A DNA stretch of 64,000 nt from Albugo candida (taxonomy: Eukaryota), in the NCBI GenBank assembly GCA_040437565.1, contig JBDOQK010000004.1, forward strand, positions 186,001-250,000. Reading direction: 5' to 3'. Below the pieces are notes generated by a model. That model ran no database searches and was not told where the DNA came from. It worked only from the letters and a program-made list of their open reading frames with translations. The stretch's first letter is position 1, and every line of letters begins with the position of its first letter. The position numbers were made by a program, and so were the translations under genes. Shown piece after piece: positions 41,719 through 57,060 of this stretch.

Positions 41719-44700
41719 TCAGACTCTTATGATATGGATTATGTGCATGAGAATGACCAAGGAAGGGAAGAAAAAGGAGCTCGTTAAAAACCAAAAATTC
41801 TCCTCATTTTCTTGGAGAAGTGCTGACTCCTGCGCACCCAGCATACCCGTACTAGAACCAAATCTGCTTGTCCACAGCCAAATCGCTAATGAGCTCATTA
41901 TATCATATGCGATTGCAATGTACGTAAATGTTCGCTGGTCAATTTGACACGGCTCGCGCTTGTTGAGATTCTTTTCAATGATCCTGTCGGTACGCAATGA
42001 GAAATTTGGAAGACGAACGTGGGCACAGGAGTATGTGAACCAAAACTTGACCATACAAGCATACCAAAAGGAATGGCCCGGGCGAATGGAAAATAAGATG
42101 CAAAGCAGGAATAGCGCCCAGACACGCGAATCCCATACATACGCTACCCAGTAGTATTTTGTTTCACATGTAGAAGTCGAAACTCTTGGAATTGAGCTGC
42201 AATCACTGCTTCGTATCTCAGAGTCACTGAGTTGTTGGCTACCGGGTGGCTGTGACGATTCTTGTTGAGCTCTTGAAAAACTTTGGATTCGTGGATCGGT
42301 CTGATGAGTTACAATCAATTTCTGGTCCTTCACTTGCTCTTGAGATGCACTCATTATCATCGTAGACTTTTCCGAGAAGGGCGTTGGTAGACGATTCGCT
42401 TTCTCAAGCTCAAACCATTCATGAACCCGTGGCTGCAGCCAAGCATAGAATCCCACTGGATCACATTCGATTCTCTTGAGATGTTCATTTGCAGTCTTTT
42501 CTCGACGAGCCTTTTCGATCTTTATTGATTCTTTGATTATCATATAATGCATGAGGCCCGCTCCTTTTTTGATCCAGTAATTTATCACATTCTTGGGCAG
42601 CGCACACTTGGGGTCCATATTGATCACTATGCAAGCACGCGTCTTCAGCTTCTCTATGGGCTCGATCAGCGCCCGAAATCCATGGATATGAATGCGGTCA
42701 GAATTCCAGCCCTTCATTTTCGGTACACTTATCATGCTCGAATCTGGTGTTTCACCAAGTAGTAGTACGCAACGATGCTCGTAGCAAGCGTTCACACCAT
42801 ACGCATGTAAGACTGCGTCTCGGGGTGTAAGGGGCAGCGACAAGCAAAAGTAGGCTAAAAGTTCACATCGACCAATGTCTGTGAGTATCTCCGAATTACT
42901 GCAAAACGGAGCCCAATATCGATACAAGTCAATTTCTCGAATGACAGCTAAAGTGTTGAAAATATCGGCCCCTTCAATAATCCCGTCCATTTTCAGCCAT
43001 ATAGTTCCATCATCACCTGGCTTCCAAAATGTTGATACACCAAGATATGTCTGAGCAAATTGCCAATCCGCTCCTTCATCGTTATTGAAATCATGAAGGG
43101 CTCGGCTTGCACACTGTGTACGTTCTCTAATCTGCTTTAGCGCGTCCTTTTCCCCTTTCATTGCGCATTTCACAGCTTCAATTGAATCCATCTTATCTTC
43201 AGGAAGCGAGGAAATATAAGATTCCATTCTATCAAGGAGCAATGTTATGGAAAAGAGTCGTTCTTCAATACGGAGTAATTGTACGTGCTTCCAAGCCCAC
43301 TCGAAATTTTTCGCAGTAATCACAATACCAGAATAATCGAGGAGACACTCGGTTGCATTTAATTCATCCGAAATTCGCTGCTGATTCTCTTCTCGGTAAA
43401 ATTGCCCACTACTGCCGTGTCCATCAAGGGTGGATGGAAGTGGAATGTGTACGTCATGGCCGCTCGCACTTTGAATCAATGATGATGAGGAAAATGAACT
43501 TGGCCCAGCAGCACTTTGAGTTGACGTAGATCGCTTGTACCCAGGTATTGAGCGCGTGAATGAAGACGAAAAAGTTGAAAAAAACGACTGTTTCAGATGC
43601 TCATGCAGACACTCTACGGCGTCTGTCGCATAGAACGATAATTTTCTCGGCGTTGTCACCTCTTTCAAAAGATGATTGCATATGTCTACAAAATTTTCCC
43701 TGAGAAAGCTGCACCCATTTACTTTGTGAAGGACAAATCCTTTGGTAACCATCACATATTTGCCCGATGACTTGAAGACGCGTGATCTAGCGTGAAGGAA
43801 CACATCTCGTTGTACAACGGCGCCAGTATTTGTTTCGAGTTGAAATGGTTTCAAACTCGTTATGAACTCTTCGGTATCTTTCGCGGTCAGTATGCATTTG
43901 AGCTTTGTTTTTGAATGCTTGATAAGTCGAGGAGTGACATGCGGCCTTGTATCAGATGGCACTGGATTCTTGAAGCCCAGCTTCATTGGACGAGGACAAT
44001 CACGGATACGTTGCAAGACATCATCGAAAGTCAGCTCGCTCGCTAGTGTGCCATTTATGGATACAAGGTAGCAGCCAGGTTTCAGGTAGAAAGGATAGAT
44101 TGATGCTTCTGTGTCCTCTTCACATTTGGTCACAGATATCTGATTGTCACCCTTTTGCATCGTCAAGTGTAACCCGATTACTGCTTCATAAAATAGCACA
44201 GTGAACTGATCGGTTGAGATGATTTCAATTTTGTCCGCTAAGCAATCCATTGTACATTGGCGTTCATGATCCAATCGAGCTGGTCGAGATGAATGAATAT
44301 CAAGAGAATGACCACGATTCCATTTCTTTTGCTGTTTCTTTCGTGTAGTCTGGTCTTTGTGCTCCTTGTTGGCTTTCACGATAAGAAGAGATCCTTCGCC
44401 ATGTTCGATCCGCTTGGTTGCTATTGTTTTACTCGAATTCAAAACAGCTGACGGAATGCGATTCACTGCTTCATTGTCGAGACTACTCAAATAGCTTTTA
44501 TAGTTGGAGCAAGCCGCTTTCAGCTCTTTGAAAAATGTCGGTAGTGTAATTGAGATGACAACGCTAAGTACGTAATCGGGAATACTACAGTCGGTATCAT
44601 CCTGAAACTCTACATAGAGATCACAACGACTTTGTCCAGCTGCTCGTAACAAAAGACGAGCTTTATAATTTTCTACTCGCTTTATGTCTTTTGCTTCAGG

Positions 44701-45228
44701 AATATCAGCATCACGTACAGTATGTGAGACCATCACATATGAATCAACACCATTATCTGTATAATGTCGTAATTGACGCTGATAGACGTAATCTCTAGGC
44801 ATGAACGGCCACGGAAGGTCGCAAGTGACATGCAACAGTTGATCACAGGCACTTTCCCTATTTTGATCGTCTTTTCCTCGAGGTAGTACACGTGTTTGGT
44901 TGACTCCGATCGGTTTCCATTGCTCGAAATATGTGGCGTCGAACAATGTATTAAAGACCAATTCAGCAGGAGATGCAAACGATGCTTGTAAATAATAACG
45001 GGGCAAAGTCTCATTAGGCTGAAGATGACGATACAAACGGATATCTTTATCCGTGTACAGCTTCGTCTCCAATAGTGACCAGATTGCATGCGTGTGGAAA
45101 TCAGTCAATTCTAGAAAACAAGGCTTTCGTGAGCTAGGTATCCACACACATTTCTGATCCATTATCGTACCTGTTAGTTCGGATTCATACTTTTCAGTGC
45201 TCTCTTTTTCGTTCTGCTCGATACTCAT
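41719..45228 (-). CDS. START - PDZ-like - START domain protein with C-terminal TM helices (paralog B)
   Basis: 1169 aa ORF collinear with paralog A (PNETLPRYYL, LPWPFMPRDYVYQR, WQFAQTYLGVSTFWKPG, IREIDLYR); probable in-frame 60-nt intron near 45111-45170 at the same position as in A. Confidence 0.9.
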   Translation of the reverse strand: MSIEQNEKESTEKYESELTGTIMDQKCVWIPSSRKPCFLELTDFHTHAIWSLLETKLYTDKDIRLYRHLQPNETLPRYYLQASFASPAELVFNTLFDATYFEQWKPIGVNQTRVLPRGKDDQNRESACDQLLHVTCDLPWPFMPRDYVYQRQLRHYTDNGVDSYVMVSHTVRDADIPEAKDIKRVENYKARLLLRAAGQSRCDLYVEFQDDTDCSIPDYVLSVVISITLPTFFKELKAACSNYKSYLSSLDNEAVNRIPSAVLNSSKTIATKRIEHGEGSLLIVKANKEHKDQTTRKKQQKKWNRGHSLDIHSSRPARLDHERQCTMDCLADKIEIISTDQFTVLFYEAVIGLHLTMQKGDNQISVTKCEEDTEASIYPFYLKPGCYLVSINGTLASELTFDDVLQRIRDCPRPMKLGFKNPVPSDTRPHVTPRLIKHSKTKLKCILTAKDTEEFITSLKPFQLETNTGAVVQRDVFLHARSRVFKSSGKYVMVTKGFVLHKVNGCSFLRENFVDICNHLLKEVTTPRKLSFYATDAVECLHEHLKQSFFSTFSSSFTRSIPGYKRSTSTQSAAGPSSFSSSSLIQSASGHDVHIPLPSTLDGHGSSGQFYREENQQRISDELNATECLLDYSGIVITAKNFEWAWKHVQLLRIEERLFSITLLLDRMESYISSLPEDKMDSIEAVKCAMKGEKDALKQIRERTQCASRALHDFNNDEGADWQFAQTYLGVSTFWKPGDDGTIWLKMDGIIEGADIFNTLAVIREIDLYRYWAPFCSNSEILTDIGRCELLAYFCLSLPLTPRDAVLHAYGVNACYEHRCVLLLGETPDSSMISVPKMKGWNSDRIHIHGFRALIEPIEKLKTRACIVINMDPKCALPKNVINYWIKKGAGLMHYMIIKESIKIEKARREKTANEHLKRIECDPVGFYAWLQPRVHEWFELEKANRLPTPFSEKSTMIMSASQEQVKDQKLIVTHQTDPRIQSFSRAQQESSQPPGSQQLSDSEIRSSDCSSIPRVSTSTCETKYYWVAYVWDSRVWALFLLCILFSIRPGHSFWYACMVKFWFTYSCAHVRLPNFSLRTDRIIEKNLNKREPCQIDQRTFTYIAIAYDIMSSLAIWLWTSRFGSSTGMLGAQESALLQENEENFWFLTSSFFFPSLVILMHIIHIIRV

Positions 45229-45850
45229 TGCTATTCGCGCCGAGTTACGTAATCCAAAGTAAGTCGTACGACTTGCTGGGTTTGAAAGTCGTTACTTTGA
45301 GGTAAAAACAAAAGTGACGAGTTTCTTATTCGAAGTGATTTGACGGATTTTCATGGCTGAAATTTTCTTCGACCAATTTTCGAAATATGGTAAGTCATTC
45401 ACTTTTTCTGCCAGGCGGTATATCGCTATTCTATGAATGCGCGAATTTTATTATCACCATTAGAAGTTTCCACATTTTGGGATCAACGTCGAAAGAATGA
45501 ATCCGATTCCGGTAGATATCGTTAAGCAGTAAGAAGACATGTCACTTCCACCAACTGATTACGTGATACCGTCAAAAGGGAACATCTCATCGATGAAAAC
45601 AATCGGTTTACATCGCTTGGCCACGATGCAGTTGCGTCACTGATTTTAACGTTACAGACTCAAAAAACTTCTCCACACACAGTCATTTGCGACTGTAACG
45701 GGAACCATAAAGTGCGTGCCCCAAATCAAAATTTTAGATCAATGACATACGATTTGTAATGGATCCCTCGCTTCCTTGCAAAGGCTTTGCTGAGCGCTTC
45801 GTAGAAGGGCTCTATAAATTAATACATAACTGAAAAGGAGCACGAAGAAA

Positions 45851-46964
45851 ATGGCGGCTAGCGTCCGAAATACTGCCATCAAACGCATACAAGGCGTAAT
45901 GTTTACTTTGCTTATCTCCGCAACTATCGACTGACTAATTTTCGGTGCGATAGGATGTTCGTGAAATGATGACCAATCCAAGTGACCAATATACAGCTGC
46001 ACCTTTGGAGGTATTTTTTTTTCTGTACATATTCAGGTAGTTTGCTCATGATGTGCTCAGGATAACATGTTCGACTGGCATTTCACGTTACGAGGAACAC
46101 GAGATACTGAGTTTGAAGGAGGTATCTACCATGGTCGCATTCTACTTCCAGCAGACTATCCTTTCAAACCGCCAAATATCATACTACTTACGGTAAAAAG
46201 CTGCTCGATAATAACCTCGTCATGCGCGTCGCTAGCACTCAACATTGATCATTTTATAGCCTAATGGTCGTTTTGAAGTGAGAAAGAAAATCTGTTTGAG
46301 CATATCGGCGCATCATCCCGAAGAATGGCAGCCAGCATGGGGAGGTTGGCAAAAGTCATGACATGCATCAATGTGGGGTTCTAAGCATTTTTTTGCATCA
46401 GTGCGTTTGATTTTAGAGGCGTTGATCAGCTTTATGCCTACACAAGGAGAGGGAGCTATTGGAGCACTCAACTTTACAGTCGAAGAGAGACGTCGATTAG
46501 CAATAAAGGTAAAGGGCGCTTGTATACTCGTCGTGTGACTATTCCATTGATGTCTATGGTTCTAGTCTCGCGAATTTTGCTGTGATGTATGTGGTAACAT
46601 TGCTCAGTTACTTCCCGAGCTTTCTGAAGGATCAATTACGAACGAGAAAAAAGAGTCCGAATATGCTGAACAAATTGCAAAACTACACGTGCACACTGTT
46701 GAAAAAGAAGCAGAAAAACAGACTACCGCTGAAAACGCACGCTCCGAGTCCAGTGTACCTCAAGAAGAAAGTTCCTCTCCCCATGACAATCAGAACAACA
46801 CTACTTTATATGACGCTCAAGTGACGACTCCGCCACAATCTGCCACATCACATCCAAACGGGGATTTTGTCAGTGACGTTTTGGGCTACCTAGCGGTCGC
46901 AATTGCCATCGCGCTTTTCGCACTTATTTATAAGCGACTGTTACAGGTCTATGGTATCCTATAG
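45851..46964 (+). CDS. UBE2J1: ER-anchored ubiquitin-conjugating enzyme, UBE2J1/Ubc6 family (6 exons)
   Basis: Spliced: AIKRIQG/DVREM..AAPLE/DNMFDWHFTLRG..EGGIYHGRILLPADYPFKPP/PNGRFEVRKKICLSISAHHPEEWQPAWG/VRLILEALISFM; C-terminal TM anchor. Confidence 0.92.
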
Positions 46965-47227
46965 ACAGCGCAATTCGGGTACATCGACCTTACGTCTTTA
47001 CAGGAAAAGACCAAGTCAATCGATAGTGTACTTCATATTGCAAGTCGATTTTTACTGAACTCCCCTAATCTCATGATACATCGCTTGTAATAGCTTTTCT
47101 CTGTCGAGTAATTTGATGAGCATTCATTGTGAGCTGTTACCTGTTTGCTCGTATTGATTCTGCCACATAGAATTTTTTTTTTCATACGTTTAGTTCGTCA
47201 AAGTATTGAAACATTTGAAGGACCATA

Positions 47228-50200
47228 ATGCCAATTACAGTCAATGTATTTCGCGATGTGGTTCGTAGCAAAGGAATCGGACTGAGTATTAGTGGAAATA
47301 TTACGAGTATCATCAATCGAACCATTCCAACTACTTCGGGTAGTTTTAGTAAAGAAAAGCGCTCTTCCGCTACTTCATCAGTCACCTCAGTCTCGCAAGA
47401 AAGCTTGGATCTGAATGACGATGATGAGAGGCGTATGCGGCTACTTAGAAAAAACTCACAGCCGAGATATGTCCCTGATCAACCATCACTTGTCGGCTCC
47501 GATGAAGATGATACATATGGGTACAATGAGCCTCCTTCGCCCCCTGCTCCACCACCAGGAGGCCTTTTGGAAGCTGCTTCTATCAATGTTCAGTCTAAAA
47601 TGAGTGAGATGATGCAGATGTCCTGTCAAGTAGCGACTTGTACCGTCGAAGATGCTCCTATTGATTGTCCTGCGTACGTCTCCAAGTCGTCACGACATGT
47701 TGATCGGCTCGTCGTTTACATTGGCGACTCAGACGGCTCACCGGGGGGAATGTGGAGTGCAAAATTATGCACACGATCAGGATCTAAAGGTAAGCTGCAT
47801 CAGCTGTTGATTAAAGTGGTCGTTTTTAACATGCGCTCAAGGTGGTGGAATATATAATGGAAGCTTGGGATCCATGCTGCCCTACATAACTAAAGCCAGA
47901 AATGATAATTATGGTGTTGTCATATATGATGATATCTTCAAGGACTGCATGGACACAAACAAGATTGATGTAAGTTGATTTATTTTCGACCGCACCATAC
48001 GATTACTCAGTCTGAATGCAATACAGATGGATCAGGTAGTCGTTCGATTTATCACAGGATGGCGTCATTTTGTGGCTACATCAAATGCCACTCATATATT
48101 CCTTGCTGTATATCGCGATGGTGGAAAATTACTTGTTGAGGCCCTTCGAAAACATCAGCAAGAAATGGAGCGATTTATTAGTGGAATTGCTTTTATTGAT
48201 TCCACTCACGAAGTTGGATCAAAAGATCCGTATGTCCTGCGTAGGCTGTTGGCACAATGGTCCATCTCTTATATCACAAGTCGAAGTCCATTTTTGACCC
48301 GTCTTCGTGCGGATGAAGAGCGAGTAGGAAGCGTTTGTTTCTCTATCGGGAAGGAGTTTGCTGACGCAGAAGCCCTTAAATCCATTATGGAATCAGTCTA
48401 TGCGAGCTTCAAGGCACGCTGGTCTGGTTTTCGCGTAAAACCCGCATATAGCGGCATGGAGCGGCTGTGCTTCATTTGTCAAAATAGCTTCAACATGCGT
48501 CGGTGGCGGCGACATTGCCGGACATGCCAAAACGCATGCTGCGAGAAATGCTCTTCTGTTGAATCAACGCAACTGGAAGGGCAGGTGAGGCTTTGCTCCG
48601 TATGTCGAGCATTACCATCGCTGATACAGTGGTCTCGCCCACGTGCTGTGCGGACCGGAGAAAAGGAAAGCGTTCTGGGGGACTGCACCAAGCCTGGAAA
48701 ATTGTCCGTAATGGACTTTGAATTGATCACAATAATTGGGAGTGGAGCTTGTGGGAAAGTTATATTGGTGCAGAAGAAGGCTGGTCATGATGCAGGACGC
48801 TTGTTCGCAATGAAAGTACTGAAAAAAAACTGGGTCATGGACAAGGATCTGGTCACTCAGACGATGGCAGAGAGACGTATCCTTCAGGAAGCGAATCATC
48901 CATATATCGTACAGCTTCAATACGCATTTCAGAATCATGACAAGCTATATATGGTAATGGATTATTATAGTGGAGGCTCACTTCGTCACGCACTGCGACG
49001 CCGAGGACGGTTTAGTATTCGTAGAACTCAGATATATCTCGCTCAGATTTTCCTGGCAATTTCGCACTTACATTCACTTGGAATCATGTACCGAGATTTA
49101 AAGTTAGAGAACGTTGTGATTGCTGCTGATGGGAATGTTGCGTGTACTGATTTTGGATTATCGAAGGAAGAAATGGACGATCAAGGCCGTACCAGTTCTT
49201 TCGTAGGAACCTGTGAATACTTGGCTCCAGAACTCATTCTCAAAGAAGGTTATGGGAAAGCAGTTGATTGGTGGGCATTTGGTGTGCTTGCGTATGAAAT
49301 GATACAAGGGGATTCACCATTCCGCCATAATTCACCAGCAGTGCTGTTCGAGAAGATTCTAGGGGAAGAGCCGGTCTTCAGTGATCGATTTCCGTCTGAA
49401 GCAGCAGATTTGATCACCAATTTGCTACAAAAAAATCCGCAGCATCGACTTGGCTGTGGTCCGAAAGGAGTCGAAGAAATCAAAGCTCATGCTTTTTTTG
49501 CTGACATCGATTGGGAAAATCTTTTAGAGCGGCGTATGAAGATCCCACGTCCACCTCATCGACTAGAGGATGTCACAGATGAAAGTAATTTGAATCGCGC
49601 GATCACTAAATTGCGAGAGGAACGCGAGGAAATGATGCCGGATTCCCCTGTTTCACTACCACAATCTCCGAGAGAACGAATGCATTTCGATCGGTTTTCG
49701 TACGCTGGTGAAGAAAGTTGGGATCCAAGTATGGCTTCAATGCGATTTGACGAGAATTTGGGTGACTTCGTGCCAACCACCATTGGTGAAGAGGATGCCA
49801 TCATTGAGGATGAACATGAAGATGCAGACGAACGGCAGAATCGAAAGAGTGATCACGAGGACTACACGGACGATCCTGAATTCAAAGACTCGTATGTAGC
49901 CAAACATGAAGAAATCGTTGATTGTGAAGGTGACTTGAGCGACGAATGCGAAGTTGCAAGCAAAGTCAGCGCTGAGCATGATTCTGCTAATGAAGACCTG
50001 CTTGAGGATGGCGCTGAAGAATTTGAGTCTGACGGTGGATCCGTTGATGATGACAAAGATTGTGAAGAATCAGGCTCCGAGACGAGAACAGAGTCTTACG
50101 CAATCAAAACCGACAAGTTTGCAGATAATACGATGATGGACGGTGCCATGTGTCCAGGAAGCCCACACTCTCCACGGTCTTTTGTGGATAGCTTAGACGT

Positions 50201-50273
50201 TGCGGAAAACTACAACGTCATGGACATCATGGAAGATGATGAGAGTGAATATCAAGGACAATACTATTTTTGA
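47228..50273 (+). CDS. AGC-family Ser/Thr kinase with N-terminal Arb2/FAM172A-like alpha/beta-hydrolase-fold domain and FYVE-like zinc finger (3 exons)
   Basis: Introns 47790-47841 and 47970-48026 keep frame. GMWSAKL..GSMLPYITKARNDNYGVVI..IAFIDSTH; CFICQNSF..RRHCRTCQNACCEKCS..VRLCSVC; IGSGACGKV, FAMKVL, YRDLKLEN, TDFGLSK, SFVGTCEYLAPE; hydrophobic motif FDRFSY; acidic tail. Confidence 0.92.
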
Positions 50274-50603
50274 GGCCGTTTCATAATGACTCGACGGTGT
50301 TTTGACAGCGTAAAATAATTAACAGATTTAGCTTGTGGTAATCTTGATCAAGCAACTTTTCCATCCGATTTTCCGAATAGGGTGCTTCAGGTTTGTTTAA
50401 TCCACTGGACTTATATGACGAGCTGGATCATGCAAGGTCCACCGACAAGGGTTTCAAGTCAACGGGTAGAAGTCATACGTGACGACCTTGCACAACCTTC
50501 CTAGAAGCGAAGGTTGATCTAATTGAGAAAGGCACTTGTTGATTTGGTGCCTCATCCATGTTCGAGGCTGGAGAAAATTGCCCTGACTATTGACTTGCAA
50601 GAA

Positions 50604-52023: not shown

Positions 52024-54339
52024 TTAGCGACGAAATTCAGTACCGAGACACCAGGCAATGAATGTGTACACATCTGTGCTTTCCTCAATCTGCTTGGTTG
52101 TAGGCTTTCCGGCTCCATGACCTGATTTCGTATCGATTCGTATAACAAACGGGTTGTTGCATGAACTTCCAAGCTGATGTTGCAATTCTGCGATGTATTT
52201 AAACGAGTGAAGTGGTACAACACGATCGTCGTGATCGCCAGTCGTCAACAATACAGCTGGATATTGAGTACGCTCGAGCTGATTTGCTTTTGGTACGTTA
52301 TGAAGCGGAGAATACTTTCTGATGTAAGAGAAGTACTCCTTTGTGGACGGATCACCGAATTCACTGATCCAAGCGTGACCAATCGTAAACAAATGGAAGC
52401 GGAGCATGTCCATAACGCCAACAGCTCCAACCACACATCGATACAAATCCGGGCGCTGATTAGCACAAGCCGCAACCAATGTACCTCCATTTGAGCCACC
52501 GTGAATTGCTATTTTCGAAGGATTAGTGTACTTTTGCTCGATCAAGTATTCTGCGGCCGCATGGAAATCATCGAACACATTTTGCTTCTTGAACAGCATT
52601 CCTTGCCGATGCCATTCCTCTCCATACTCGCCTCCTCCCCGAAGATTGGCAATTGCCAGCATACCCTTGAAATGTTGCACGAACAATAGACGAGAGATGC
52701 TAAAGGAAGGCTTCAATGCAATGTTGAAGCCTCCGTAGCCGTATAAATAGGTCGGAATAGACCCATCAGGTTTCAACAACTTGTGCTTGACCAGGAACAT
52801 CGGGATCTGAGTACCGTCTTTGGATGGATAAAAAACTTGAAGAACCTCGTACTGAGAGGCATCAAAATCCTTGAGAGTTGATTCACGGAAACAAACACCC
52901 TCAAGTCGCGGAACCTTAGCAGTTTGAAAGTCTGGCAAATCTAAATGAAAAATCTTTCCGGGGTATAAAACTGAGACGAATTTGTAAAAGACCATAGAAC
53001 TTGCTCTTTTGCTTGAAACTTGAGCAGTACCGATAGCCGGTAAATCAATCTTCGTGTAAAATTGACCCTCCAGATTGTATATATGAAGGACGTTATGAAC
53101 ATCTGATAGTAACTTGAGGATGAGTAGATTTTTGCGAGCTGGATGCACAGACTCCAAGACGATAGATTCAGGTTGTTCAGGAATCACTTCCACCCAGGGT
53201 GGACAATTACTGGTTGCATCGGCGCCGAAATCATGACTGCTCAATATGAGTCCCAGATCAATCTTTACAACTCTTTCCCGAGGAGCATTCATGTTTGTCT
53301 GAAAATAGAAGAAAGACTCATCATTGAAAATGTAGTTGAATGAGTATTCCATCATGTCCACGAGCTTATATACCGGCAAATTTCTTCCGTTCTGGTCAAT
53401 CATCCAATCGTTAAAAACAGTGATTGAAGTTAGATAGACCATATTGGCATTCTTACATCCGTCAAACAGATAAACAATGATATATTTCCCATCTTCCGAC
53501 ACTTCAGCTGAAAGTGTGTAATTAGGTTTGGAGGGATAAGCAAATACCAGAACGTCCTTCTCTTGAGTTGTGTGCAAATGATGATACCAGATCTGATGAT
53601 TTGAATTTGCGTTAGTCTCCGTACCACGTTCTTTCTGCTGCTCTGTTGTTCCAGAGCCTTCAAATTGTGCGGGTGCTGGGAACCGACAATAGAAAAAGCC
53701 TTTGTCATCATGAGTCCAGCTTATACTGCTGAACTTGACCCAATCGAGTTTGTCCGTCAATATATAATCACTATAGTGAGAATTTCCGTCTCCAGCACTT
53801 TGAGATTTGGTGACGTCCAAAACATGTATACTTTGCCAGTCTGATCCACCGTGTGATATTCCGTACGCCATATAGAGTTGTGGATTGTTGCTTTTTTTAC
53901 ATTTCGAAAATGAGACATTGCTCAGCGCAATAGTCCCGTCTTTGGAGAGTTGATTTGGGTCGAAAAGGACCTGTGCGTCCCCATGTAATGTCCTCTGAAT
54001 GTACCACACATCCTGGTTCTGTAATCCATCATTTTTGGCGTAAACGTAGTATTGATGCTCGGCGAGTGTCTCACTTCCAATTTGAAATGGCACCGAAAAC
54101 TTTTCATAATCAAATAGCTCTGTGAGCCTGGCTTTGAATTCACTTTGAAATCGGACATTTTGTTCGAATACTGCAGATGTCAGCTGATTTTGTTCAGCTA
54201 CAAACTTCTTTGTCTCCTCAGTAGAAGGATTCTCCAACCAGCGATAAGGATCGGGTACGACATCACCAAAATGTTCTTCTTGCACGCTATCGTCCCGACG
54301 AACGTCCGGATATCTATTGCGTTGGGCGTTATTCGACAT
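52024..54339 (-). CDS. PREP: Prolyl oligopeptidase (S9A)
   Basis: VPDPYRWLE, YPSKDGTQIPMF, LYGYGGFNI, ANLRGGGEYGEEWH; catalytic GGSNGG, DHDDRVVP, SGHGAGKP. Confidence 0.97.
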   Translation of the reverse strand: MSNNAQRNRYPDVRRDDSVQEEHFGDVVPDPYRWLENPSTEETKKFVAEQNQLTSAVFEQNVRFQSEFKARLTELFDYEKFSVPFQIGSETLAEHQYYVYAKNDGLQNQDVWYIQRTLHGDAQVLFDPNQLSKDGTIALSNVSFSKCKKSNNPQLYMAYGISHGGSDWQSIHVLDVTKSQSAGDGNSHYSDYILTDKLDWVKFSSISWTHDDKGFFYCRFPAPAQFEGSGTTEQQKERGTETNANSNHQIWYHHLHTTQEKDVLVFAYPSKPNYTLSAEVSEDGKYIIVYLFDGCKNANMVYLTSITVFNDWMIDQNGRNLPVYKLVDMMEYSFNYIFNDESFFYFQTNMNAPRERVVKIDLGLILSSHDFGADATSNCPPWVEVIPEQPESIVLESVHPARKNLLILKLLSDVHNVLHIYNLEGQFYTKIDLPAIGTAQVSSKRASSMVFYKFVSVLYPGKIFHLDLPDFQTAKVPRLEGVCFRESTLKDFDASQYEVLQVFYPSKDGTQIPMFLVKHKLLKPDGSIPTYLYGYGGFNIALKPSFSISRLLFVQHFKGMLAIANLRGGGEYGEEWHRQGMLFKKQNVFDDFHAAAEYLIEQKYTNPSKIAIHGGSNGGTLVAACANQRPDLYRCVVGAVGVMDMLRFHLFTIGHAWISEFGDPSTKEYFSYIRKYSPLHNVPKANQLERTQYPAVLLTTGDHDDRVVPLHSFKYIAELQHQLGSSCNNPFVIRIDTKSGHGAGKPTTKQIEESTDVYTFIAWCLGTEFRR

Positions 54340-57060
54340 CGTTTTAGTTTTGTGGAACGAAAGTCGGTCCCAATATCACAGTAAGCACCGGACCGGGACT
54401 ATCGAAGCGGTTACTGTACGGATATGACAGTAGCGTTATAATCATTTGCGCAGATGCGACCTTACTTTTGATAAAAGTACGCAAAATTCAGTTGTGTGGG
54501 TCTCACGTAGACTTTGAACTTGTAATAGCACATACGTGCAGCAACTTTCTACCAGAACAATATCGGTAGCGACCTTAATAGAACAAAAGCAGTAGCAACA
54601 GGGCCCAACTGTTGGCAAGTCGATGCAATTCGATTTACTGCAATGTAATGTGTGGCCATTGGTCAAGCTCGAACCGCATACATTTAGTCAACTTCTTGCT
54701 CGCTTTCCCGATGATGGACTATAAGGCAATGTGGTTCACTATTGGAGCACCGCTTTTGTGCACTTGTACACGCCGTGTATCCACTTGCTTGCGATGCAGT
54801 ACATTCCCTTGCTTTCATCAAGTGCACATACTAGCGACCCGTTTCGGCTGCTGAATTGAATAAACATGTGTTCGTGCAGCACATGCGAAATACCTCTGGC
54901 TGGAATCTTAGCAGTACAGAAAAATGAAGACACGCGAAGTAGTAGTAGCTCTTGAGACAAACAATCGTACATATATGATGGGCGCTTGAACAATCAAAGC
55001 TAATCTGTTAAGCCGCTCCACGAAATTTTATTGAATCAAGATCAGATGAAGCGGATTTTTCTCAGGGTCGTAACGCAATTATAGCTCTCGCTGAAAGTCC
55101 TTATCACGGAGTCGAGTAAGTAAAGCAAAAGCTCTCGAACTCTCGATTGCTCTCAAGCATCTCTACCTAGTTTCTGAAAGCCTGATGCTGTCAAAGTTTG
55201 ATCAAGGTTCTATACAAAACAAACAAATTTGAAATATGTTTGCTTCATTCTATGCGATATTTCTAGCTCTGCTGCAGCTTCATGTCTTGGAAACAAAATA
55301 GACNNNNNNNNNNNNNNNNNNNNNNNNNNNNNNNNNNNNNNNNNNNNNNNNNNNNNNNNNNNNNNNNNNNNNNNNNNNNNNNNNNNNNNNNNNNNNNNNN
55401 NNNGCTGAAAGTCCTTATCACGGAGTCGAGTAAGTAAAGCAAAAGCTCTCGAACTCTCGATTGCTCTCAAGCATCTCTACCTAGTTTCTGAAAGCCTGAT
55501 GCTGTCAAAGTTTGATCAAGGTTCTATACAAAACAAACAAATTTGAAATATGTTTGCTTCATTCTATGCGATATTTCTAGCTCTGCTGCAGCTTCATGTC
55601 TTGGAAACAAAATAGACTTATGCTAAGCATATGGTCGCATGGTTGGGAGAAATCCTGTTCCGTAGTCACCGTTATAGACCGACACTTGGGGGCCACGACA
55701 TTGGTAGGCGTCATTTCTTTCATTTTGCTGCGATCGTCTCTTTCGTTTTTGAGATCATTCTTGCAAAGAACATATGCGAAAAGCGCAGCATGTAGGACCA
55801 CTCAGTCAAAAGCCAAAGTATGGACGAAGTGCGCTGAGCGCTGTTAGCATACGGTACATTACGGGTCGCTGGGCGCCCATGCTATCGCCGCAAAAGTAGA
55901 GCAATTGCTGTCGACAACGTACCAGCTGTTTACAATTTGATACGCGCTTCATTCGTGTTCGATGAGAGCAAATGTATTCTAATCTTTAATTGGAAGTACC
56001 AAGACGTCAACATCCAAGACTTTCACCGCACCGTATCAAAAGACTCAATGGCTTGGAGCTTCAGAGTTCGGATATTATACACTTTCGCGAGTATCTCGGA
56101 GTGTATGTAACAACCTCCATTGTACATGCATGCATAACCTTCATGCAATGCCAATCCCTCACACTCCGAGATCAAAAGTCACATATGGTGTATTTCTTGC
56201 AATGAACGCTCAATACGAACAGGCCCATGCATCAACGTTTCCTAGTGGTTCTCGCTCTTCTTGCTTGACCAGCTTCTCCTGAGGAAACATCGCTGAAAAT
56301 GCCACGACTACATTCACGGCTGTTTGATCTGTCACACTCCTATTTCTTCCTGGTATTATCTCTACTACTCTCTATGTCTCGCCAACNNNNNNNNNNNNNN
56401 NNNNNNNNNNNNNNNNNNNNNNNNNNNNNNNNNNNNNNNNNNNNNNNNNNNNNNNNNNNNNNNNNNNNNNNNNNNNNNNNNNNNNNCACTCCGAGATCAA
56501 AAGTCACATATGGTGTATTTCTTGCAATGAACGCTCAATACGAATAGGCCCATGCATCAACGTTTCCTAGTGGTTCTCGCTCTTCTTGCTTGACCAGCTT
56601 CTCGTGAGGAAACATCGCTGAAAATCCCACGATTACATTCACGGTTGTTTGATCTGTCACACTCCTATTTCTTCCTGGTATTATCTCTACTACTCTCTAT
56701 GTCTCGCCAACCCCACTAGCAACGATTTCAGATACGGTAGGCCTAGCACGACTATTTTTTACAACGAGAGATGGACGCCATCAGGGAGTCATGGTTGGCT
56801 TGTACCGAATCGAATCAACAACCATTGGAATCTGCAGTGACTCAGTGTGATTCAGTGAAAAGAGTTTCATTCAAAAGCGAAAGCGATCGTATAACAAGAA
56901 ACTGGATCAAAAAATTACCTTAGAGGCTGCATGTGCCGATGGGAAGGTTCGATTTAGCGATGGAGCTTATCATTCCGTGGTAGCTCATTTCCATATAGGT
57001 GCTCAATGAGCAGCAAAAAAAGAGTCGGTTTCGGGTAAGCCGATGCTAGACCGTCTTTGG

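Follow-up and report, generated by a model that had tools for sequence, protein, structure and literature searches.

What does an oomycete gain by placing an Arb2-type domain and a FYVE-type zinc finger in front of an AGC protein kinase? The question is raised by a gene of Albugo candida that lies at 47228-50273 of a 64,000-nucleotide stretch of contig JBDOQK010000004.1 (hereafter the window). A first-pass annotation, made from the letters of the window, had proposed the three domains. It had further suggested that the kinase couples endosomal lipid or target of rapamycin (TOR) signaling to Argonaute regulation. The analysis reveals one expressed gene whose product carries all three domains. 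We favor, with moderate confidence, a growth-signaling AGC kinase equipped with a non-catalytic Arb2-FYVE interaction module.

Gene structure and transcript

The coding sequence, read directly in the window, begins with an ATG at 47228 on the forward strand and ends with a TGA stop at 50271-50273. Scripted joining of the exons yields 2937 nt, or 978 codons, with a single and terminal stop. Logan contigs from four public runs, whose labels are guesses, were aligned to 46900-50500. Run X1 provides a single 4366-nt contig (depth 29.9) that comprises 47153-47786, 47839-47969, and 48027 to beyond 50500. The contig omits both introns (52 and 57 nt, both GT..AG) and joins all three exons on one spliced message; its joint at intron 1 passes from 47786 to 47839, with the cut at +3. 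Both introns are retained in the contigs of runs X5, X12, and X13. X1 was taken as RNA-derived solely from the absence of both introns, and no ranking of expression was drawn from the depths. Upstream, the contig of the neighboring gene stops at 47065, 88 nt before the start of the kinase contig at 47153. The stretch 47228-50273 is one expressed three-exon gene that encodes a 978-residue protein. The span and both introns had been placed exactly by the first-pass annotation, and a reading of the spliced X1 contig agrees with them.

The gene is already annotated in public databases. The spliced protein is identical to A. candida CCI10034.1 at 970 of 978 residues and to A. laibachii F0WN57 at 802 of 981 columns (82%). 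It equals another public A. candida model, KAL0591729.1 (960 residues), except for an 18-residue gap at the joint of exons 1 and 2. The residues missing from that model, 187-204, include the invariant GGGI..GSLGSMLPY (window 47786-47900). The 52-nt intron and the 978-residue product are backed by the spliced RNA contig and by CCI10034.1, unlike KAL0591729.1. In addition, the A. laibachii orthologue P0002 is continuous across the junction of exons 1 and 2. The contigs of run X12 show 29 differences from the window over ~3.6 kb, and those of X1 and X13 show few. The X12 differences show that the public runs include diverged strains of A. candida.

Many public orthologue models are split or truncated (P0025, P0029, P0030, and P0308), and predictions based on open reading frames (ORFs), such as P0001, begin at exon 3. 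Such models would fit two separate genes, one with the Arb2 exons and one with the FYVE-kinase ORF, that had been wrongly joined in our model. We regard this mis-join as virtually excluded. All exons lie on the one spliced X1 contig, which contradicts a separate gene for the 5′ exons, the frame is unbroken over 978 codons, and full-length orthologues are found across oomycetes.

The protein is sequentially composed of an N-terminal region, the Arb2 domain, the FYVE finger, a conserved linker, an RSK/MSK/Akt-like AGC kinase, an FDRFSY hydrophobic motif, and an acidic tail (Table 1). The strings quoted in the first-pass annotation, LVVYIG, GGMWSAKL, GSMLPYITKARNDNYGVVI, WRHFV, IFLAVYRDGG, IAFIDSTH, and FDRFSY, are all present in the spliced protein. 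The acidic tail contains 61 Asp/Glu among residues 791-978 (188 residues) and shares 48% identity with A. laibachii. A full-length AlphaFold2 model of P0002, computed from a 14-row alignment, has a mean predicted local distance difference test score (pLDDT) of 45.6 and a predicted template modeling score of 0.34. It hints weakly at disorder in residues 1-117 and 806-978. A Pfam match to RXLR effectors at residues 32-77 (window 47321-47458; E 0.045, 14.6 bits against a cut-off of 26.9) was rejected as chance, probably due to the composition of the Ser-rich region.

The Arb2 domain

Profile comparisons place the homology of the domain to Arb2/FAM172 on firm ground, far above chance. The Pfam Arb2 family (PF22749) has a curated cut-off of 26.8 bits, which is passed by nine of nine full-length orthologues (30.9-43.8 bits), including the A. 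laibachii orthologue (35.6 bits). Exon 3 alone covers just the final third of the domain and for this reason stays below the cut-off, with 18 bits over profile positions 182-259 of 260. From five truncated public models and the translations of the three exons of the window, we built a profile, named A1, that represents the Arb2-FYVE part. By hhalign, A1 matches nine FAM172-like proteins (A4) with a probability of 99.5% and an E of 2.5e-23 over 242 columns. In a search of 1.84 billion representatives, A1 retrieved 218 proteins at E≤1e-3, with 59 reaching ≤1e-10 and 20 reaching ≤1e-30. Pfam was run on 36 of the 150 matches listed, namely the longer proteins among the more distant matches; Arb2 is above its cut-off in all 36, and 12 of them also contain a kinase domain. 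The ESM Atlas features of residues 100-430 of P0002 are nearest to Arb2/FAM172 clusters, with a score of 0.80 that is below the meaningful level and serves as a lead only.

The fold was examined in an AlphaFold2 model of P0025, an orthologue fragment from Phytophthora ramorum, computed from an 18-row alignment. The model has a core at 103-355 with pLDDT 80-92 and an overall mean of 57.9. Foldseek places Clr3 (5IKK) and Hda1 (6Z6F, 5J8J, and 6Z6O) at ranks 1-5, with E between 1.1e-8 and 7.1e-7, above esterases. In VIA-align, the Z score is 18.4 for Clr3 (root mean square deviation 3.7, 221 aligned), 17.3 for the Arb2 domain of Hda1, and 16.8 for the best esterase. The modeled domain plainly has an α/β-hydrolase fold, and it is chiefly the sequence profiles that identify it as Arb2 in particular. 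The A1 profile search of solved structures returned no Arb2 chain and only weak FYVE matches (E 0.17-2.6), so the link to Clr3 and Hda1 is seen by fold only. Like the window domain, the Arb2 domains of Clr3 and Hda1 have no catalytic triad, and they act as interaction or dimerization modules. However, the sequence identity is 12-15%, and they lie C-terminal to a deacetylase, whereas the window domain is N-terminal to a kinase. The Arb2/FAM172 match suggested by the first-pass annotation is thus borne out both by hhalign and by the structural match to Clr3 and Hda1.

Alignment of the Arb2 domains from the kinase clades and from FAM172-like proteins shows where the window protein departs from its relatives. 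FAM172-like proteins are marked by LIHGSG, NPN, a long insert ending in IPI..PE.H, and AHSYGG together with AFTDSVH and SAGTxxHE. In the window protein, YIGDSDG replaces LIHGSG and YDD replaces NPN, and the long insert is absent, with a short DDIFKD... segment there instead. At the nucleophile elbow, VYRDGG places Arg260 at the nucleophile position of AHSYGG, the loss of Ser that had already been noticed from the letters. In addition, AFIDSTH takes the place of AFTDSVH, and SIGKEFAD is found where FAM172-like proteins have SAGTxxHE, with no His after strand 8. The window protein thus has neither the sm-x-Nu-x-sm nucleophile nor the His after strand 8 of an active α/β-hydrolase.

The window domain and the FAM172A family share a homologous α/β fold, W-S/A-R after strand 3, G(S/T)xxPY, an xxGG elbow, and A.AF.DS.H. 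However, FAM172-like proteins stand alone and keep HGSG, AHSYGG, SAGTxxHE, and the long CK2-NLS insert. The window protein retains none of these four features of a FAM172A orthologue, and it joins the domain to a FYVE finger and a kinase. From this alignment, the window Arb2 is a domain homologue of FAM172A and not its orthologue. Among the orthologues the residue at the elbow differs: Albugo, Pythium, Lagenidium, and Peronosporales have Arg, Aphanomyces has Gly, and the early-branching P0024 has Ser.

The domain is judged to be non-catalytic, given that the nucleophile and other esterase hallmarks are lost. Arb2 has been classed as an inactive α/β-hydrolase module for protein-protein contacts (PMC11878206). 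The Arb2 domains of Hda1 and Clr3 are reported to homodimerize and to bind histones (PMC5036196), and FAM172A, itself Arb2-bearing, to homodimerize (PMC10205598).

A Gly-rich stretch, GGGI..GSL, precedes GSMLPY. It occurs only in the clade of the window protein (clade A) and does not vary among the 14 aligned orthologues; the invariant positions are G185-G187, I188, and G191-P198 in P0002 numbering. The loop is modeled with low confidence (pLDDT <50) and lies after strand 3, where the 'arm' of Hda1 sits. The Hda1 arm is described as forming the homodimer (PMC5036196). The RSGS of the loop was considered as an autophosphorylation or pseudosubstrate site and dropped, as the second Ser is His in several orthologues.

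The conserved residues also raise the prospect of a ligand-sensing pseudoenzyme, in which a degenerate pocket would bind a lipid, an ester, or a metabolite and control the kinase allosterically. The pocket-forming elements are retained in the fold, and several positions around the pocket do not vary, namely the W of GxWS, GSMLPY, the His of (D/Q)STH, and the Gly-rich loop peculiar to the clade. The position of the invariant loop at the dimerization arm of Hda1 favors protein contact instead, and we consider ligand sensing improbable. A non-catalytic interaction module is the reading carried forward.

Relatives and the genetics of PsZFPK1

Named relatives with the Arb2-FYVE-AGC kinase design are all oomycetes. 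Of 40 matches, one is unrelated and 32 are recorded with Arb2; the other seven are without it, being ORF models cut at the N terminus. A comparison of domain architectures across stramenopiles, as the first-pass annotation had proposed, finds the full design in oomycetes. It also finds Arb2 with an AGC-type kinase and no FYVE finger in Nannochloropsis oceanica (P0164 and P0234) and in a Parmales species (P0241). Because of these Arb2-kinases without FYVE, Arb2 and kinase were probably fused before the oomycetes arose, with the FYVE finger as a probable later addition. Other combinations among Arb2 proteins are Arb2-C2-FYVE-kinase, PH-Arb2-kinase, and Arb2-kinase.

Three clades of oomycete proteins are relevant to the window. 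A quick tree was built from 58 Arb2-domain rows, hand-picked from 222 proteins that match a local Arb2 profile, and in it the window clade is monophyletic with a Shimodaira-Hasegawa approximate likelihood ratio test (SH-aLRT) value of 100. The 90% cluster of P0017, a clade A member, holds PHYSODRAFT_354099 (PsZFPK2) of P. sojae and EEY53403.1 of P. infestans. Clade B contains PHYSODRAFT_345221 (PsZFPK1) and members from A. candida and A. laibachii, and is characterized by an AFSRG elbow, a FYVE core of RRIPCS or RRFQCT, and an FNDFAF hydrophobic motif. PHYSODRAFT_360424 (PsZFPK4) and one protein of A. candida fall in clade C, which has a GYSYGG elbow, a canonical RRHHCR core, and a Pkinase_C domain.

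Albugo has two copies of the clade A kinase, the paralogues being counted from public A. candida proteins rather than from the assembly. A 26-row quick tree with clade B as the outgroup places the window protein, CCI10034.1, and F0WN57 together on a stem of 0.67, inside the PsZFPK2 clade. Their sister is a second A. candida protein, CCI46957.1 (P0287; 842 residues, 56% identical, stem 0.26), with an SH-aLRT of 98. CCI46957.1 carries YRDGG, MRRWRRHCR, and FDRFSY. Because it is sister to the window group, the gene appears to have been duplicated in Albugo specifically, the window gene being the faster-evolving copy. On the evidence of this tree, the window gene is one of two Albugo co-orthologues of PsZFPK2.

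PsZFPK2 and EEY53403.1 resemble the window protein in domain order and in YRDGG, (D/Q)STH, MRRWRRHCRTCQ, LPSL..WSRPRAVR, SFVGT, and FDRFSY, and the three belong to one starred clade of the tree. EEY53403.1 and the window protein are identical at 541 of 997 columns (about 54%). In contrast to these two proteins, the window protein has FIDSTH instead of F.QSTH and a longer acidic tail, and Albugo has the second copy.

Several public entries in this group are mis-modeled. P0308 of P. ramorum (647 residues) is labeled 'Cotranscriptional regulator FAM172A' and is a truncated model of a clade B Arb2-FYVE-kinase. Similarly split or cut orthologue models are P0025, P0029, P0030, and P0032. P0031, P0028, and P0032 were considered as paralogues and dropped, as they are mis-modeled versions of one and the same orthologue.

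The first-pass annotation was not aware of the architecture having been characterized. It is already described and not new. Among the AGC kinases of P. infestans, Judelson & Ah-Fong (2010) report two with Arb2, a combination listed as novel, and two with FYVE, and they mention an association of the Arb2 domain with chromatin and small interfering RNA (PMC3019232). Ru et al. (2023) describe PsZFPK1-5 as oomycete FYVE-AGC kinases, of which PsZFPK1 is the only one studied genetically (PMC10381902). Full-text literature searches (Arb2 with oomycete or kinome, and ZFPK) retrieved nothing beyond these two papers.

PsZFPK1 resembles the window protein in its Arb2 domain, FYVE-like finger, and AGC kinase. 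It belongs to the sister clade, and the IPI..PE.H insert is absent from both clades. However, PsZFPK1 keeps the elbow Ser (AFSRG) and has a FYVE core of RRIPCS and a T-loop Thr. It also has an Ala at the hydrophobic-motif site, which reads FNDFAF in its Plasmopara orthologue.

The reported PsZFPK1 knock-outs have lower growth, oospore production, and virulence, and their sensitivity to rapamycin is reduced (PMC10381902). Loss of function is described for each of three deletions (residues 2-321, the FYVE finger, and the kinase), none of which alters the cytoplasmic localization (PMC10381902). PsZFPK1 fused to green fluorescent protein (GFP) behaves like empty-vector GFP, with signal in the cytoplasm and the strongest signal in the nucleus, and domain deletions do not alter this pattern (PMC10381902). 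In complementation, T602A restores the defect only slightly and T602D restores it like the wild type (PMC10381902). Arb2 is named nowhere in this article (0 occurrences). By homology, the required N-terminal region of PsZFPK1 is the Arb2 pseudo-hydrolase domain.

In S. pombe, Arb2 associates with Ago1. The window domain is, by hhalign, a true homologue of the Arb2 domain of FAM172A, and FAM172A is reported to bind AGO2 directly (PMC10205598); the 2010 kinome paper, as mentioned, notes chromatin and small-RNA associations. From such links, Arb2 would bind Argonaute or a chromatin-silencing partner and couple nutrient or lipid signaling to small-RNA pathways. This proposal, close to that of the first-pass annotation, found no support and we rate it as very unlikely. 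AGO2 binding requires E229 in a CK2-NLS loop that splits the Arb2 domain of FAM172A (PMC10205598), and the corresponding insert, which follows the NPN strand and precedes the helix after it, is deleted in clade A, as mapped by alignment to FAM172-like proteins rather than to mouse FAM172A. The solved Arb2 domains of Hda1 and Clr3 dimerize and bind histones instead, and the distribution of PsZFPK1-GFP is that of GFP itself. The literature searches gave no Argonaute data for these kinases. A bolder version would make Arb2 an old stramenopile module for recruiting partners to AGC kinases, already joined to kinases in Nannochloropsis and Parmales, that docks Argonaute or chromatin-silencing proteins in oomycetes like its FAM172A, Arb2, and Hda1 relatives. 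The PDK1/TOR-regulated kinase would then phosphorylate the small-RNA or heterochromatin machinery according to nutrients, with the Gly-rich arm as a new binding surface. We hold this to be a long shot.

FYVE finger, kinase and proposed function

The FYVE finger and an AGC kinase with an FxxFSY hydrophobic motif, both proposed by the first-pass annotation, are recovered by Pfam and by alignment. The finger contains eight Cys (CFIC, CRTC, CEKC, and CSVC). On exon 3 it scores 28.4 bits against the Pfam FYVE (PF01363) cut-off of 27.8, a marginal pass; only three of nine orthologues reach the cut-off, and the signal is borderline either way. In FYVE fingers that bind phosphatidylinositol 3-phosphate (PI3P), WxxD precedes the first Cys and RVC lies close to the final pair of Cys. 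The window protein has no W..D in the 12 residues before CFIC, and RLC (residues 418-420) stands in the position of RVC. Alignment to EEA1 and Hrs shows that the core is WRRHCR rather than the canonical R(R/K)HHCR of PI3P-binding fingers, with the first Arg changed to Trp and the first His to Arg. The change is common to all crown members of the clade, and the early-branching P0024 and P0044 keep WRHHCR. The Arg and His residues of R(R/K)HHCR are stated to make crucial hydrogen bonds with PI3P (PMC10381902).

These features bear on an SGK3/Akt-like mechanism, in which the finger would bind PI3P and bring the kinase to endosomal or vacuolar membranes for activation, with Arb2 as a mere accessory. 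In favor of such targeting by the window finger, all eight Cys, the RLC, and four of six core residues are kept, closer to the canon than in PsZFPK1, and the finger can be aligned to the FYVE domains of EEA1, Hrs, and Vps27. The early-branching orthologues and the canonical core of clade C are also compatible with it, and Ru et al. liken these kinases to Akt and SGK3 (PMC10381902). The altered core in all crown members, the lack of W..D, and the failure of most orthologues to reach the Pfam cut-off argue in the other direction, as does PsZFPK1, a paralogue with a more degenerate core, whose finger is needed for function and not for localization. We find PI3P-driven targeting unlikely, though it is the strongest of the alternatives. 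Akt (with PH) and SGK3 (with PX) do share with the window protein a lipid-binding-type module upstream of an AGC kinase with T-loop and hydrophobic-motif sites. The window protein differs from them in the altered PI3P core and in the pseudo-hydrolase that precedes the finger.

The kinase domain looks catalytically competent from its motifs, which include GSGACG at 468, Lys493, YRDLKLEN at 585, DFG at 605, the T-loop Ser621 (49197-49199), and APE at 630. Pkinase matches exon 3 with an E of 1.5e-62, and no Pkinase_C match was found at E≤1. The best solved relatives are the N-terminal kinase of MSK1 (1.4e-83), then RSK2, Akt (about 1e-77), and S6K1. SFVGT of the T-loop (with Ser621), DSPVSLP.SP, and FDRFSY are invariant or nearly so in 14 aligned orthologues, and conserved SP sites are present at residues 770 and 777. 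In addition, oomycetes from Aphanomyces to Albugo show hardly any variation in the region that starts with the last Arb2 helix (SVYASFKARWSGFRVK) and takes in the FYVE finger and the linker.

The preferred reading, a growth-signaling kinase with a non-catalytic Arb2-FYVE module, suggests the following mechanism. As in the RSK, MSK, Akt, and S6K kinases, activation would most likely take place when a PDK1-type kinase phosphorylates Ser621 in the T-loop and when Ser788 of the hydrophobic motif FDRFSY is phosphorylated by a TOR-complex kinase or by the enzyme itself. Proline-directed sites lie between Ser621 and Ser788. Arb2 would most likely be a non-catalytic protein-binding or self-association module with a scaffold role; an interaction module is preferred over an enzyme because the nucleophile and other esterase hallmarks are lost. 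Arb2, the atypical FYVE finger, and the invariant linker probably constitute one rigid regulatory or targeting cassette needed by the kinase. By analogy with its paralogue PsZFPK1, the protein likely functions in growth and nutrient signaling.

Several points weigh against this reading. First, the functional analogy crosses a paralogue boundary, from PsZFPK1 to clade A. Clades A and B are joined with an SH-aLRT of 92, not starred, in a quick tree, and the literature searches found no functional study of PsZFPK2 and no clade A experiment. The window copy lies on a long branch (0.67, versus 0.26 for its Albugo paralogue), so that it may by now differ in function from PsZFPK2. Second, the P0025 model represents an orthologue fragment, not the window protein, and is confident in the core at 103-355 only; the full-length P0002 model is too poor for domain contacts. 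The margin of the modeled fold between solved Arb2 domains and esterases is small (Z 18.4 versus 16.8), and the fold alone is not discriminating. Third, the invariance of the His of (D/Q)STH and of the Gly-rich insertion could reflect a pocket that binds a ligand instead of a simple scaffold. The Cys and core residues retained in the finger would also be consistent with PI3P-driven membrane targeting.

Table 1. Features of the kinase gene, its protein product, and neighboring genes in the window
Feature	Position	Strand	Basis or remark
5′ untranslated leader	47153..47227	+	RNA-derived contig starts at 47153; no ATG upstream of 47228
Exon 1, residues 1-187 and first base of codon 188 (ends in phase 1)	47228..47789	+	Sequence, RNA contig
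Intron 1, 52 nt, GT..AG, inside Gly-rich loop of Arb2 domain	47790..47841	+	Skipped in X1; retained in X5, X12, X13
Exon 2, completes residue 188, to residue 230	47842..47969	+	Sequence, RNA contig
Intron 2, 57 nt, GT..AG, in-frame stop inside	47970..48026	+	Sequence, RNA contig
Exon 3, residues 231-978 and TGA stop	48027..50273	+	Sequence, RNA contig
N-terminal region, residues 1-114, Ser/Thr-rich, ends in conserved PPSPPAPPPGGLLEAA (residues 102 onward)	47228..47569	+	pLDDT <50; alignment
Arb2 domain, residues 115-375, both introns inside	47570..48461	+	Profile envelope; homology; fold
Gly-rich insertion GGGIYNGSL, residues 188-196, before GSMLPY, split by intron 1	47789..47867	+	Clade A alignment
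Nucleophile elbow YRDGG, residues 259-263, Arg260 for Ser of AHSYGG	48111..48125	+	Alignment
FYVE-type zinc finger, residues 378-423	48468..48605	+	Pfam 28.4 bits (cut-off 27.8); alignment to EEA1, Hrs
FYVE-kinase linker, almost invariant, LPSL..WSRPRAVR.GEK.SV	48606..48719	+	Orthologue alignment
Protein kinase domain, residues 462-721	48720..49499	+	Pkinase 1.5e-62; closest MSK1 1.4e-83
AGC C-terminal extension, DSPVSLP.SP and FDRFSY (residues 784-789; 49686-49703)	49500..49703	+	Alignment
Acidic tail	49704..50270	+	Composition; poor conservation
Upstream neighbor, multi-exon gene	46052-46964	+	Ubiquitin-conjugating (UQ_con) exon, C-terminal hydrophobic tail
Long open frame, 1190 residues stop to stop	41719-45291	-	START lipid-binding domain (E 1e-13) near N terminus; remainder without Pfam match
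Prolyl oligopeptidase gene, apparently intronless	52024-54375	-	Peptidase_S9_N 1.8e-90, Peptidase_S9 1.3e-59

The locus offers a lesson for annotation, as these genes are often split or truncated in public models. The minor new points are the Arb2 domain in the N-terminal regions of PsZFPK proteins, the duplication in Albugo, the clade-specific Gly-rich arm, and the Arb2-kinases of ochrophytes; a specialist is unlikely to be surprised by any of them. The Arb2 identity of the N-terminal region of PsZFPK1 gives a structural meaning to the deletion result of 2023 and ties it to the kinome observation of 2010. Among named records, the kinase group is confined to oomycetes and a few other stramenopiles, and Ru et al. 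suggest that kinases of this kind might serve as fungicide targets specific to oomycetes (PMC10381902).

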